This document shows positions 27,241 to 30,538 of a DNA stretch of 38,917 bases, piece by piece. A program made the translations under genes and the position numbers. The stretch is taken from IMG/VR virus record IMGVR_UViG_3300045988_014907. The stretch is one strand, 5' to 3'. The notes below the pieces were generated by a model, which was not told the DNA's origin, made no database searches, and saw only the letters and a list, made by a program, of their open reading frames with translations. Each line of letters starts with the position of its first letter. Position 1 is the first letter of the stretch. This DNA is from a virus.

Positions 27241-27608
27241 CCGTTGGCTTTCCGCTTGCACTCGATCACGGTATTTAGCTGCGTCAAGATCGCGTCGCAA
27301 TTTGGCGTAAACCGCTCTATCAATCCGCTGAGTTTGTCAACCTCGACCGCTATTTCCCCGGTCGCCTTTGCCCGATAAATGGAGACGGCATCGGTCGCGT
27401 CATGGAAGCCATTCGGAGACGGATATTTTGCGTAAAGGGAAACGGTAGATACCATTTTGTCAAAATCGGCATCGCAGGCCGTTTCCTTTTCGTGCGCCCA
27501 TATTGTTTGCAGCTTTTTTATTTCTGCCTTTGCCGCCTGTTTTGCAACGACCCATGCGACAATGCCGGAAATAGCAGCACAGCCGAGTGAAATGATGATT
27601 TCTTTCAT
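27237..27608 (-). CDS. Single-pass membrane protein co-transcribed with the CI-like repressor
   Basis: N-terminal TM segment IIISLGCAAISGIVAWVVA. ATGA overlap with the upstream gene. SD is GAGGAAG. Confidence 0.65.
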   Translation of the reverse strand: MKEIIISLGCAAISGIVAWVVAKQAAKAEIKKLQTIWAHEKETACDADFDKMVSTVSLYAKYPSPNGFHDATDAVSIYRAKATGEIAVEVDKLSGLIERFTPNCDAILTQLNTVIECKRKANG

Positions 27609-27976
27609 TGTTCTTCCTCAAAAGCGGCGCGCCCCATTTTTATAAAACGCTCCAGTTTTTCCGGCGGTAATGACAACACAAACTGAATAGCGGCTTTCTG
27701 CAAATCTGTATAGCCCTCGCCCTCTGTGGCGGGGGCTTCTTTTATGCCCGGGTCGTCCGTTTCGCCACGAAGGTATTCGACAGATACTCCGTGCAAAGCT
27801 GAGATTTGGTAAAGATAGTTTTTGTATGATTCCGAATTTCCGGCAATCCAATCAGAAACGATGTGTCCATCTTTAAACCCGAGAGGTCTTGCAAATTGGG
27901 ATAACGCGCCATGCTTAAAAGCGCCATTCTCTTTTTTCGGAATTAAAGCCAGGATTCGTTCCAACGTTGTGTCCAT
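27605..27976 (-). CDS. CI-like XRE-family repressor
   Basis: ATG 27976 lies after AAGGGG. HTH pattern GALSQFARPLGFKDGHIVSDWIAG...LYQISALHGVSVEYLRGETDD. Divergent from the cro-like gene. Confidence 0.7.
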   Translation of the reverse strand: MDTTLERILALIPKKENGAFKHGALSQFARPLGFKDGHIVSDWIAGNSESYKNYLYQISALHGVSVEYLRGETDDPGIKEAPATEGEGYTDLQKAAIQFVLSLPPEKLERFIKMGRAAFEEEQ

Positions 27977-28143
27977 ATTTGCCCCTTGTTTTTTGTGCAA
28001 CCATACAAAACAGTTTATTTGAACCAATTTGGTATTGCAAATGGTTTGAATGTGAGGTATCATATAACCAAGCCCACCGGAAAAGGGCACACAAAAACCA
28101 GCCCCCCATAAAAGCGGCTTTTGCAATGTCTTTTGGCGATTTC

Positions 28144-28172
28144 ATTGTAATACGCTTTCCGGGCAGTGTCAA
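28144..28172 (-). promoter_or_regulatory. Sigma-70-type promoter for the CI-like operon
   Basis: Minus strand reads TTGACA, 17-nt spacer, TACAAT. Confidence 0.6.
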
Positions 28173-28206
28173 GTGTGATTTCTCATGTTTATGAGGTTTC
28201 GGTGGG

Positions 28207-28224
28207 CATTGACTGCGGCGGGGA
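28207..28224. repeat. Left copy of a perfect 18-bp inverted repeat (cattgactgcggcgggga)
   Basis: Exact reverse complement of 28550-28567. Confidence 0.95.
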
Positions 28225-28258
28225 AAAGAAAAAGCACCCGTGGTCTGTTCACGGATGC
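28224..28258 (-). terminator. Rho-independent terminator of the switch-region RNA unit
   Basis: Minus strand reads gcauccgug aacagac cacgggugc followed by uuuuucuuuu. One G-U pair makes it minus-strand specific. Confidence 0.7.
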
Positions 28259-28288
28259 TTTCCCCCCAGATTTGTTTACCAGAACGCA

Positions 28289-28376
28289 TTGCACAGGATG
28301 GTCGGACACGTTGCTTTGTATCCGTCCGAATTGATGGGTTTCTTTCCATCGGCTCGGCAATGCCATCCTGACGCAA
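28289..28376 (-). ncRNA. Candidate structured RNA: three-way junction with twin AAAGNAAC loops
   Basis: P1 is 12 bp (28376-28363 with 28301-28289). P2 is 28357-28326 with loop AAAGAAAC. P3 is 28324-28303 with loop AAAGCAAC. The element lies between a near-consensus promoter and a terminator. Confidence 0.45.
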
Positions 28377-28439
28377 AATCAGACTTGCGCTTCTATGGAC
28401 GCGCCGCTCACTTTGGCAGTTCCGGTTCTGCCCCTTGCC

Positions 28440-28496
28440 CTATCGCATCGCGCCGTTTCTTTGGTCTGGAACGGGCAAAGTCAAAAGGTTGGTCAT
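28440..28496 (-). CDS. 18-codon ORF (MTNLLTLPVPDQRNGAMR) with a near-perfect SD
   Basis: AAGGAGGTGG lies 6 nt upstream of ATG 28496, downstream of the TTGACT-17-TATACT promoter. Confidence 0.4.
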   Translation of the reverse strand: MTNLLTLPVPDQRNGAMR

Positions 28497-28515
28497 GGAA
28501 ACCACCTCCTTGAGA

Positions 28516-28544
28516 TTGCCGCAAAGGGCTAATGGCAGTATAGC
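28516..28544 (+). promoter_or_regulatory. Candidate rightward (cro-side) promoter
   Basis: TTGCCG, 17-nt spacer, TATAGC. Its -10 overlaps the -10 of the opposing promoter. Confidence 0.4.
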
Positions 28545-28565
28545 AAATCTCCCCGCCGCAGTCAA
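28537..28565 (-). promoter_or_regulatory. Near-consensus leftward promoter driving the small ORF/RNA unit
   Basis: Minus strand reads TTGACT (inside the right inverted repeat), 17-nt spacer, TATACT. Confidence 0.6.
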
Positions 28566-28567
28566 TG
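28550..28567. repeat. Right copy of the perfect 18-bp inverted repeat (tccccgccgcagtcaatg)
   Basis: Exact reverse complement of 28207-28224. Confidence 0.95.
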
Positions 28568-28597
28568 ATAACTCACAATGAAGGGAGGACACAAAAA

Positions 28598-28792
28598 TTG
28601 ACATTGAGAGAGCTGCGAGAACGCTCCGGACTGACCCGCGCACAGGTGGCGAAGAAGCTGAATGTTGATCTATCCTGCGTGACGCATTGGGAGCTGGGAG
28701 ACTGGCGACCGGCGCGGAAGTACCACAAGAAACTGGCGAAGATGTACGGCGTGACCGTGGACGAGCTGTTTGAATCCAGCGACGGGCAGTAA
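28598..28792 (+). CDS. Cro-like XRE-family HTH regulator
   Basis: TTG start 9 nt after GAAGGGAGG gives MTLRELRERSGLTRAQVAKKLNVDLSCVTHWELG... The ATG at 28565 has no SD and lies inside the inverted repeat. Confidence 0.75.
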   Translation: MTLRELRERSGLTRAQVAKKLNVDLSCVTHWELGDWRPARKYHKKLAKMYGVTVDELFESSDGQ

Positions 28793-29646: not shown

Positions 29647-29843
29647 CCAACTGCCCCATCGAATGCCCCAATAGGCGGGTAGGATGCCGCACCGGCTGTC
29701 CCGTTTGGGAGCAGCACGAGGCGGAGAAAGCCATCTCTTACGCGGAGCGGGTCAAGAACAACGAGTTCAAGGAGTACAAGGGGCGCGTGATGCGCAAGGC
29801 ATACAAGCGCATTCAACAGGGCGCGAAGGGAGGACGGAAATGA
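29637..29843 (+). CDS. Small Cys-rich hypothetical protein
   Basis: CPIECPNRRVGCRTGCPVW. Overlaps both neighbouring genes. Confidence 0.55.
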   Translation: MGMTNCPIECPNRRVGCRTGCPVWEQHEAEKAISYAERVKNNEFKEYKGRVMRKAYKRIQQGAKGGRK

Positions 29844-30538
29844 AGGTTTACAAGGCAACTAATAAGGATATGAAATGCCGCGGGTTCCAGTATGAGCTTG
29901 GCAAAACGGCAGAAGTGGATGGAGACGCTAAACTCTGTGAAAGAGGTCTCCATGCCTGCGAAATGCCGCTTGATGTTTTGGGTTACTACGCGCCCGGCGA
30001 TGGCTCCCGGTATTTCGAGGCGGAGCTGGAGGATGTCAGCGACGAGATGCAGAGCAACGACACAAAGCGCGTCGGCAAGAAACTGACATTGAGCGCAGAG
30101 ATCGGCATTCCGGGGCTTGTCAAGGCGCAGGTGGAGTACGTTAAAGCACAGTGTGATTTTGACAATGCCATCAAAAAGGCGAACAGCGAAAAGAAAAACC
30201 ACGCCACCGGCTGGAGTGGCGCAGCATCCGCCACCGGCGTGAGTGGCGCAGCATCCGCCACCGGCGAGAGTGGCGCAGCATCCGCCACCGGCGTGAGGGG
30301 CGCAGCATCCGCCACCGGCGTGAGGGGCGCAGCATCCGCCACCGGAAAAGGGTGTGTGGCTATGGCTACTGGTTTTTATGGGCGCGTAATGGGAGAGATT
30401 GGAAACGCCGTTGTCTGCGTAGAGCGAAATATGAATGGAGAGATCGCTGCCATTCTATCCGCTGTTGTGGATGGCGAAACGCTGAAACCCGGCGTGTGGT
30501 ATACCGTTAAGAACGGGGAATGGGTGGAGGTGCAGTAA
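29840..30538 (+). CDS. Repeat-containing phage protein (DUF7666-like N-terminus, GAASATGxx nonapeptide repeats)
   Basis: MKVYKATNKDMKCRGFQYELGK...LHACE N-terminal pattern. Five 27-nt tandem repeats are in frame. Confidence 0.7.
   Translation: MKVYKATNKDMKCRGFQYELGKTAEVDGDAKLCERGLHACEMPLDVLGYYAPGDGSRYFEAELEDVSDEMQSNDTKRVGKKLTLSAEIGIPGLVKAQVEYVKAQCDFDNAIKKANSEKKNHATGWSGAASATGVSGAASATGESGAASATGVRGAASATGVRGAASATGKGCVAMATGFYGRVMGEIGNAVVCVERNMNGEIAAILSAVVDGETLKPGVWYTVKNGEWVEVQ
30203..30346 (+). repeat. 27-nt tandem repeat x5.3 (gccaccggcNNNagKggcgcagcatcc), coding
   Basis: Copies start at 30203, 30230, 30257, 30284 and 30311, with a partial copy at 30338. Variation is limited to 3-4 positions. 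Confidence 0.95.

Follow-up and report, generated by a model that had tools for sequence, protein, structure and literature searches.

Antisense and immunity RNAs of temperate phages include lambda OOP, P22 sar, P1 c4, and the P4 CI RNA, and coliphages 186 and P2 have switches with convergent promoters. Invertons (fimS, hin, and the promoter switches of Bacteroides) are phase-variable invertible promoters. Correia elements carry promoters and form hairpins that are cleaved by RNase III when the elements are co-transcribed. Morons were reportedly described by Juhala and Hendrix in 2000 as autonomous promoter-gene-terminator units in prophages. FuFi-1 is an RNA motif with a 3′ intrinsic terminator that does not lie in 5′ UTRs and is found in a prophage context (Weinberg et al. 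2017, PMC5737381). That study gave no function and found no self-cleavage, and it picked FuFi-1 among a few widespread structured RNAs with a likely sophisticated function (PMC5737381). The literature that we searched reports no function since 2017.

We analyzed the switch region of a 38.9-kb stretch of viral DNA, called the window here (features in Table 1). A repeat search found two 18-nt arms that are 100% complementary and lie 325 nt apart. The left arm reads CATTGACTGCGGCGGGGA and the right arm is its exact reverse complement. The 18-mer itself is non-palindromic and has just two matches in the window, even with up to 3 mismatches; two matches were seen in 0 of 100 shuffles (mean 0.10). 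The arm pair recurs in about 146 independent viral and metagenome contigs in all, far above chance. The preliminary description had reported perfect 18-bp inverted repeats in the middle of the CI/Cro intergenic region, a promoter and an RNA between them, and a right arm that supplies the −35 and half of the spacer. The repeat search, the promoter scan, and the flanking CI-like and Cro-like genes bear out all of this, and the segment holds a leftward promoter, a FuFi-1 match, and a terminator. The repeats are probably the conserved outer ends of a self-contained leftward cassette in the switch of a family of temperate phages from the human gut. Their hosts may be of the Oscillospiraceae type, given a weak DNA match to a Flavonifractor phage.

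Table 1. Features of the switch region (feature, position in the window, strand, remarks)
Left arm, 18-bp inverted repeat	28207..28224		terminator-side cassette boundary; kept in about 146 contigs
Right arm, 18-bp inverted repeat	28550..28567		promoter-side boundary; holds −35 TTGACT and 10 nt of spacer
Predicted cassette promoter TTGACT-17-TATACT	28537..28565	-	TG before −10; 10/12 consensus matches; −35 within right arm
Intrinsic terminator	28225..28262	-	hairpin 28231-28261, then U tract reaching left arm
FuFi-1 RNA (Rfam RF02986)	28228..28453	-	full-length match; ~60-nt insertion in one hairpin
5′ domain of transcript beyond Rfam model	28454..28530	-	start hairpin, motif AAGGAGGTGG, conserved TGACCAACCTTTTGACTTTGCCCGTTCC
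Mini-ORF in 5′ domain	28496..28440	-	within FuFi-1 transcript
CI-like gene, 123 aa	27605..27976	-	same strand as cassette; homologues in related loci
Predicted CI-like gene promoter TTGACA-17-TACAAT	28144..28172	-	11/12 matches; ~37 bp beyond left arm
Candidate rightward (lytic) promoter TTGCAA-17-TATCAT	28035..28063	+	promoter scan
Cro-like HTH gene	28598..28792	+	HTH_31/HTH_3 (Pfam); ribosome-binding site 13 nt past right arm; without own promoter
Operator-like 13-mer TGTGAGGTATCAT	28051..28063	+	overlaps rightward promoter −10; also listed as repeat
Operator-like 13-mer TGTGATTTCTCAT	28174..28186	+	adjoins CI promoter −35
Operator-like 13-mer TGTGAGTTATCAT	28565..28577	-	abuts right arm and cassette promoter −35
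Second inverted repeat, left arm GCCCACCGGAA	28072..28082		start of rightward transcript
Second inverted repeat, right arm TTTCGGTGGGC	28197..28207		directly abuts 18-bp left arm

The bracketed DNA is predicted to be one complete leftward transcription unit, running from a promoter through an RNA of ~300 nt to an intrinsic terminator. Promoters and read-through are predictions from consensus matches throughout. An equivalent promoter, at equal spacing from the arm, is found in every class of cargo carried between the arms. The cassette terminator ends one base from the left arm, which is an inverted copy of the right arm placed directly after the terminator. Cassette and CI-like gene are co-oriented (leftward). 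A weaker rightward promoter proposed earlier inside the segment, TTGCCG-17-TATAGC, has no counterpart in the other cargo types and was missed by the promoter scan because the final T of its −10 is missing; it is just the leftward promoter's TG-extended −10 read on the other strand.

The cargo in the window matches the FuFi-1 covariance model over positions 1-175 of 175, with 105.6 bits where the gathering threshold is 59.6 (E = 2.8e-23), and a second run repeated the Rfam match. As in the described motif (PMC5737381), the RNA is a full-length member with a 3′ Rho-independent terminator, a location outside a 5′ UTR, and a prophage context. The gene after it (CI-like) has its own predicted promoter. 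Unlike the published description, the RNA here is placed in a phage switch, on the CI strand and predicted to be antisense to the leader of cro; a conserved 5′ domain extends it beyond the Rfam model, and within one phage clade its inverted-repeat bounds are invariant. Its transcript would start near 28530, as judged from the −10. The 5′ domain is conserved across low-GC and high-GC FuFi-1 loci, and the whole 306-nt RNA folds with a z-score of −5.2.

FuFi-1 appears to be located in the phage switch even without the repeats. Among the repeat-free FuFi-1 loci examined, most have a CI-type HTH gene downstream in the same orientation, and several have a small HTH gene upstream and divergent. The reproducible position between cro-like and CI-like genes, antisense to the predicted lytic leader, gives a testable hypothesis of function: placement on the CI strand and against the lytic leader points to immunity or lysogeny control. 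In this FuFi-1 would resemble OOP, sar, c4, and the P4 CI RNA, as a small RNA from the lysogeny side acting against a lytic transcript in the immunity region, and as in the 186 and P2 switches, strong leftward promoters are predicted to face a rightward lytic promoter. FuFi-1 differs from the known RNAs in being large, highly structured, and widely conserved, in occupying a slot that also takes unrelated cargos, and in that its link to immunity is drawn from sequence. We rejected the idea that the repeats are a general FuFi-1 trait; in about 20 FuFi-1 loci of other phages, flanking repeats do not exceed 7-10 nt. An idea that the arms are complementary to a FuFi-1 loop, as in a guide RNA, was dropped because the same arms also bracket unrelated cargos.

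At least three unrelated cargos occur between the arms: FuFi-1 variants, a different structured RNA of ~110 nt, and a 44-aa ORF. Loci with different classes cease to be homologous at the inner arm edges. Cargos counted in flank family F2 are class A (25), class B (10), and FuFi-395 (8), those in flank family F3 are class A (2) and FuFi-395 (21), and FuFi-425 is found in F1, F4, and three other contexts. An Rfam search of the class A cargo gave nothing significant. Because cargos reassort among flank families with breakpoints at the arms, we regard the arms as conserved cassette boundaries. Cargo may be exchanged by recombination at or through them. Like morons, the cassette is a self-contained promoter-cargo-terminator unit that is present, absent, or swapped between otherwise similar phages. 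It differs from morons in lying inside the immunity switch, not between late genes, in carrying mostly non-coding RNA, and in having a perfect inverted repeat at its ends, with promoter sequence in one arm. A repeat-bounded slot with reassorted cargos is an unusual form of module exchange in a region where phage genomes are usually deemed tightly integrated. No empty site (arms adjacent or ≤30 nt apart) was found in viral contigs, and this blank scan gives no evidence for an ancestral palindrome. A 16-mer scan of genome contigs was too unspecific, with 120 chance matches and no genuine pair.

A Pfam search of the CI-like ORF gave no match. The ORF has 42-48% identical matches in three related loci (L045, L121, and L131), and in L045, the one locus checked for position, the match lies left of the FuFi-1 RNA. 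The position of the CI promoter is kept in other flank families. The gap between right arm and cro is too small for a promoter, and cro would need a rightward promoter beyond the left arm because it has none of its own. We infer that its transcription begins at a rightward promoter ~175 bp beyond the left arm; scanning of four flank types showed a rightward promoter-like site in each, at −171 to −180 relative to that arm, and a fifth, in L001, was read by eye only. On its way to cro, such a transcript would run through both arms and the antisense cassette between them, which would place the cassette antisense inside the cro leader and convergent with lytic transcription. The cassette is probably a lysogeny-side unit. 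The cassette promoter, like the CI promoter, appears to have an operator-like 13-mer just upstream of its −35. The 13-mers (TGTGAGnTATCAT) at all three promoters are likelier CI/Cro operators than the arms are. At the cassette promoter the TGTGAGTTATCAT site differs by flank family (TGTGAGATTTCAT, TGTGAGTTTTCAT), with the arm unchanged.

The preliminary description preferred an invertible promoter switch, in which a recombinase flips 28225-28549 and re-aims the strong promoter toward cro. As in invertons, inverted repeats of 10-30 bp, here a perfect 18-bp pair, surround a promoter-bearing segment of a few hundred bp, and the window encodes the serine recombinase that had been claimed. However, this is the only recombinase found among the ORFs scanned, and its 453 aa with Resolvase and Zn_ribbon_recom domains are of the large serine integrase type; no small serine invertase of the Hin/Gin type or tyrosine invertase of the FimB/E type is present among the window ORFs scanned, and the cassette has no dedicated invertase. 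A scan of viral contigs with an arm 15-mer returned 119 loci, 49 of them with inward-facing pairs, and a metagenome scan returned 120 loci, about 75 genuine. Orientation was called from two flanking landmarks, the reverse-strand ribosome-binding site on the outer side of the promoter arm and the CI promoter on that of the terminator arm. The search for both orientations among related phages, run on these contigs, gave a single one: all 133 cassettes with full window-type flanks share the window orientation, and the reverse arrangement was seen in none. Three scans for inverted-junction patterns over two collections gave 0 matches in viral contigs and 0 among 241 million metagenome records. An inverton promoter reads across the repeat into a flanking gene, whereas the cassette transcript is predicted to end within the segment. 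A flipped copy would transcribe FuFi-1 and stop short of cro because the terminator sits just inside the left arm, and a flip would not redirect expression. The arms also persist around a promoterless FuFi-1 remnant in L019, L076, and L099. In a single contig (L272) the neighboring segment between a shorter pair of repeats, which bears the CI promoter, is inverted, so inversion in this region is physically possible; further junctions of this type had 0 matches in viral contigs. With a fixed orientation, no inverted junctions, and only a large serine integrase, the invertible-switch reading is unsupported and extremely improbable, and nothing suggests that the bracketed segment flips. Perfect inverted repeats around a promoter are insufficient evidence of phase variation, and inverton finders applied to gut metagenomes could mis-flag this locus.

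Three other explanations concern the arms themselves. They may be two identical DNA sites for a conserved phage or host protein that loops or co-regulates the cassette and CI promoters, which we consider unlikely but the least so of the alternatives weighed here. Both arms are almost invariant over 33 arm-pair types and the adjacent flanks diverge; the right arm overlaps a −35, and the predicted CI transcription start is ~70-87 bp downstream of the left arm. Uncompensated single-arm changes are tolerated in either sense, and among the main flank families the Cro-like proteins are 65-70% identical, conserved enough that Cro could conceivably bind the arms. Against this, the 18-mer is not palindromic and has no further copies in the window, and by tblastn of the window ORFs against arm-keeping loci elsewhere (L035-type context), the only shared proteins are SSB and one unassigned ORF. 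The fallback offered earlier, that the arms are a CI/Cro operator pair, is unlikely because phages with radically different CI proteins, whose N-termini fall into two unrelated types, share identical arms, and because the separate 13-mer at all three promoters is the better candidate; operators co-vary with repressor specificity, and it is the 13-mer TGTGAGnTATCAT, not the arms, that varies between families. Pure recombination linkers, with no expression role and persisting as short joints for module swapping, are a poorer explanation still. Cargo and flanks are reassorted with homology breaks between cargo classes exactly at the arms, and the phage encodes SSB beside an unassigned 192-aa ORF, also in L035, but nothing requires linkers to be inverted copies, joints that are identical and inverted would accept cargo in either orientation when only one is seen, and the right arm doubles as promoter sequence. 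The cassette is very unlikely to be a MITE-like mobile element, that is, a non-autonomous carrier of a small RNA inserted in the switch with the arms as terminal inverted repeats. It does share with Correia elements and bacterial MITEs a short length of a few hundred bp, inverted-repeat bounds, promoter hexamers at one end with an outward-independent promoter, and a long hairpin if co-transcribed, a possible RNase III target. Arms and cargo are also found in at least three unrelated flank contexts (L035/L158/L167, L123/L152, and L170). Yet there is no target-site duplication at the window arms, as the earlier reading had it when it discounted such an insertion; the flanks there are GGTGGG and ATAACT, and no duplication was seen in any flank context compared. 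MITEs have multiple dispersed copies, and the window holds one, with two arms only (≤3 mismatches); more than 130 contigs share one site and one orientation, the scan for adjacent arms turned up no empty site, no transposase is evident, and the cargo is exchangeable, changing while arms and flanks stay, which is the reverse of the pattern of a moving element.

In rightward read-through RNA, the arms may pair as an 18-bp G+C-rich helix with any cargo looped out. This would keep the leader architecture cargo-independent, and the helix could be an RNase III substrate. Read rightward, the terminators of the cargos lack a U tract. The helix is present in both the MFE and the centroid structures of the rightward leader. 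Across 38 distinct arm pairs, cells of the 14-bp core count as G·U in 16 cases and as unpaired in 5 when read rightward, and as G·U in 2 and unpaired in 19 when read leftward. A variant with G to A in both arms occurs in 7 loci, and left-arm-only variants that mismatch in the rightward sense (L182/L276, L252, and L228) were seen with more loci. A rough tally of events after these loci were added stands at about 13 to 4-5, and the single-arm variants could be recombinants. RNAalifold gives near-equal energies for both senses. These results weakly suggest that the arms may pair in the cro-leader RNA. A purely structural helix fits the near-total invariance of the arms amid diverged flanks less well than does sequence-specific recognition or frequent recombination. 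A wider proposal can be put forward only tentatively: a clade of temperate human-gut phages would have a dedicated repeat-bounded cargo slot in the switch, where regulatory RNAs (FuFi-1 and at least one undescribed structured RNA) or a mini-protein swap at the invariant 18-bp joints; these joints would pair in the lytic leader and loop out any cargo, and FuFi-1 would be a general immunity-region RNA of Firmicutes phages.

The second, shorter inverted repeat lies between the candidate rightward promoter and the left arm. Its helix (28072-82 with 28197-207) was considered as evidence that the rightward leader is structured, and rejected; neither the MFE nor the alifold structure contains it, and its sense preference is ambiguous, with neither sense favored. 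Complementarity of the short repeat is kept with different sequences in other families.

The 18-bp sequence CATTGACTGCGGCGGGGA and its exact reverse complement, located by a repeat search, enclose 325 nt in the phage switch. The inverted repeat is real, as in the preliminary description, and strongly non-random: allowing up to three mismatches, the 18-mer matches the 38.9 kb at these two places only, and 0 of 100 shuffles contain two. The promoter scan recovered a leftward promoter overlapping the right arm, and the arm therefore supplies its -35 and ten spacer bases, as had been claimed. The weak rightward promoter reported inside the segment (TTGCCG-17-TATAGC) was not recovered, because the final T of its -10 is missing; this sequence complements the leftward promoter's TG-extended -10 and has no counterpart in the other cargo types.

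Features of the cassette and related loci (window positions unless a locus is named)
Feature	Position	Strand or sense	Remark
CI-like gene	27605-27976	minus	
Operator-like 13-mer TGTGAGnTATCAT	28051-63		over -10 of rightward promoter
Short repeat, left copy	28072-82		equivalent of GCCCACCGAAAA in L272
AAAAACC(A)AGCCCCC motif	28093-28107		
Operator-like 13-mer TGTGAGnTATCAT	28174-86		beside CI promoter -35
Short repeat, right copy	28197-207		equivalent of TTTTCGGTGGGC in L272
Left arm	28207-28224		
FuFi-1 RNA (RF02986)	28453..28228	minus	Rfam search, full-length match
FuFi-1 5' domain	28440-28530	minus	outside Rfam model
Cassette promoter TTGACT-17-TATACT	28565..28537	leftward	promoter scan; TG before -10
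CRISPR spacer match	28546-28579	minus	right arm and flank; 34 nt, exact
Right arm	28550-28567		
Operator-like 13-mer TGTGAGnTATCAT	28565-77		abuts right arm and cassette -35
cro-like gene	28598-28792	plus	
DUF7666 ORF	29684-30538	plus	
Class A cassette	L003 10675-10843		
Class B cassette	L009 2855-3135		
CRISPR array	L187 6130-8713		repeat ATTTCAATCCACGCCCCCCGCGAGGGGGGCGAC
Skipping-rope RNA (RF02924)	L035 10560-10630		58.8 bits

The enclosed DNA encodes a FuFi-1 RNA (105.6 bits; gathering score 59.6; E = 2.8e-23) with a ~60 nt insertion within one hairpin. The terminator stem and U tract of the model extend to 28225, a single base away from the left arm, and the ~77 nt separating the -10 from the Rfam match contain AAGGAGGTGG along with a short conserved stretch. 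The complete 306-nt RNA folds far better than its shuffles do (z = -5.2). Exactly one transcription unit, made up of promoter, structured RNA and terminator, is thus bracketed by the arms. The FuFi-1 motif was described as widespread, with a 3' terminator and seldom in 5' UTRs; self-cleavage was not detected and no function was assigned (Weinberg et al. 2017, PMC5737381). In the literature searched, FuFi-1 is mentioned in that survey only. The 5' domain, common to all FuFi-1 loci compared, contains a strong SD-like sequence, AAAGGAGnTGG, together with a mini-ORF (M-T-(K/N)-L-L-x-L-P-...) with some third-position variation, yet a variable stop; a leader peptide and an RNA motif are both candidates.

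In L001, a human faecal phage record, the layout is the same and the FuFi-1 RNA is only ~74% identical; the core TGACTGCGGCG persists on both sides. A viral-contig scan with the 15-mer TGACTGCGGCGGGGA gave at least 119 loci, and 49 of the 119 listed (41 distinct sequences) have an inward-facing arm pair. The metagenome scan with TCATTGACTGCGGCGGGG listed 120 loci, ~75 of them genuine, and a viral scan for the FuFi-1 core gave 60. Viral and metagenome loci combined, both arms are present in at least 148, and at least 146 cassettes contain a recognisable promoter and terminator.

Identical arms enclose at least three unrelated cargos: FuFi-1 (~355, 395 or 425 nt, plus remnants), a class A cassette of 166-169 nt that encodes a different RNA (folding z = -6.4; no Rfam family), and a class B cassette, 281 nt long, that contains an RBS plus a 44-aa ORF rich in Lys/Ser/Thr. 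Every cargo has its own terminator and its own -10 at the correct spacing from the arm, and between phages with near-identical flanks homology stops at the inner arm edges. The cargos are reassorted among families of flanking sequence. Among the matches listed, the window's family (F1) holds FuFi-355 (12 loci) and FuFi-425 (30 loci), F2 holds class A (25), class B (10) and FuFi-395 (8), and F3 holds class A (2) and FuFi-395 (21); F4 and three other contexts hold FuFi-425. Arms with cargo also occur in unrelated surroundings (L035, L158, L167 and L170). A search for empty sites with the arms adjacent found none, and no flank context has a target-site duplication. The arms are probably the boundaries of a cargo slot, with cargo exchanged at them. 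In the window, the phage switch holds an expression cassette, bounded by repeats, exchangeable and non-inverting, with a FuFi-1 RNA as its cargo; it is a variant of the known morons and immunity-region RNAs.

The class A RNA, present in L003 and ~25 other loci among the matches listed, is strongly structured, ~110 nt long, with its own promoter and terminator in the same slot, and is possibly a small RNA not yet described. At the class B loci (L009, L034, L051 and L085) the slot has an ORF (MAKNSVRTSKTVASKASKALSSGKTSKTTKTIAASALSNRRSK), not an RNA.

The segment had been proposed to be an invertible promoter switch, to be checked by comparing related phages for both orientations. Among the matches listed, all 133 cassettes with window-type full flanks have the window orientation, scored by the promoter arm adjoining the reverse-strand cro RBS and the terminator arm adjoining a leftward TTGACA-17-TACAAT promoter; no reverse arrangement was seen among the remaining cassettes, whose flanks are too short to score or belong to other contexts. 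Patterns specific to the flipped state had no match in viral contigs or in 241 million metagenome records. The genome does encode the serine recombinase cited for inversion, but it is a 453-aa protein of phage-integrase architecture (Resolvase and Zn_ribbon_recom) rather than a small invertase. Nor would a flip drive cro as suggested, because the cassette carries its own terminator, which would halt the rightward FuFi-1 transcript before cro. Promoterless FuFi-1 remnants at L019, L076 and L099 retain both arms. Within the limits of assembled contigs, the reading of 28225-28549 as an inverton is not supported, and we hold the cassette identity and the absence of inversion, taken jointly, with high confidence. 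The alternative use of the arms, as a CI/Cro operator pair for looping, is unlikely: identical arms accompany unrelated CI N-terminal regions (L003/L106 type vs window/L121 type), and the 13-mer TGTGAGnTATCAT is operator-like instead. Between the window CI and its counterparts in other arm-bearing families, identity is only 42-48%. All three copies of the 13-mer in the window lie in the switch, and the motif differs between flank families while the neighbouring arm is constant; by distribution it behaves like an operator. Some other conserved factor could bind the arms. The Cro-like proteins are 65-70% identical among the main families, but only SSB and one unassigned ORF are common to the window and the L035 context.

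The arms may instead act in RNA. Only ~30 nt separate the right arm from the start of cro, too few to accommodate a promoter, and, 171-180 bp left of the left arm, 4/4 scanned flank types have a rightward promoter-like site (TTGCAA-17-TATCAT in the window, TTGACA-17-TATACT in L124, TTTACA-17-TATAAT in L002; in L001 a similar TTGACA-17-TATACT site was read by eye). This site faces a near-consensus leftward CI promoter, and the cargo terminators have no U tract in the rightward sense. Most plausibly, a cro transcript from the predicted promoter would traverse both arms and the antisense cassette between them; the cassette would then belong to the lysogeny side and converge with lytic transcription. 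In this leader the arms would pair into an 18-bp helix, present in both the MFE and centroid structures. Across the 14-bp core of 38 distinct arm pairs, the rightward (cro) sense has 16 G.U and 5 unpaired cells, vs 2 and 19 in the leftward (cargo) sense; one variant changes G to A in both arms (7 viral loci). The larger data set has left-arm-only variants that mismatch in the rightward sense (single-arm variants may be recombinants), RNAalifold scores the senses nearly equally (-36.5 vs -35.5), and the adjacent short repeat prefers neither, so the evidence is suggestive, not decisive. A helix role for the arms in the cro leader is a tentative and rather doubtful prediction.

In the promoterless remnants the -10 is missing, as is the 5' half of the RNA, and in L076 and L099 two extra small genes separate the right arm from the cro-like gene. 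The motif AAAAACC(A)AGCCCCC, at equivalent positions in L001, L002, L003 and L124, lies in the overlap of the convergent promoters and is kept in every flank family, although the surroundings differ.

The nearest case in the data to the proposed invertible switch is a metagenome contig (L272) in which ~115 bp between the short repeats GCCCACCGAAAA and TTTTCGGTGGGC are exactly inverted relative to the near-identical L188 and all other loci, which points the CI promoter at cro. No such junction was found when viral contigs were scanned. At ~1/140 loci among the matches listed, this resembles a rare recombination mutant more than a programmed switch. The contig L187 contains a CRISPR array with a spacer that matches the right arm and flank exactly, so some host acquired immunity to exactly this region.

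No flanking repeat was found at ~20 FuFi-1 loci of other phages (many low-GC), so the repeats are specific to one clade. Ten loci were examined, and most have the same FuFi-1 layout; L035 is an exception. Where scanned, upstream divergent neighbours are mostly small HTH proteins (HTH_17, HTH_3, HTH_26) and downstream co-oriented neighbours are of the CI-type HTH (Phage_CI_repr, HTH_3, HTH_19, HTH_26). Judging from these neighbourhoods, FuFi-1 seems to belong regularly to the lysis/lysogeny switch in Firmicutes phages, which offers for this orphan RNA family a precise genomic role that can be tested. The L035 contig also encodes a skipping-rope RNA, another orphan of the same 2017 survey, ~3.5 kb from its FuFi-1 cassette. 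In the window, the DUF7666 domain is followed by tandem GAASATG(V/E)(S/R) repeats with a weak collagen-like Pfam match.
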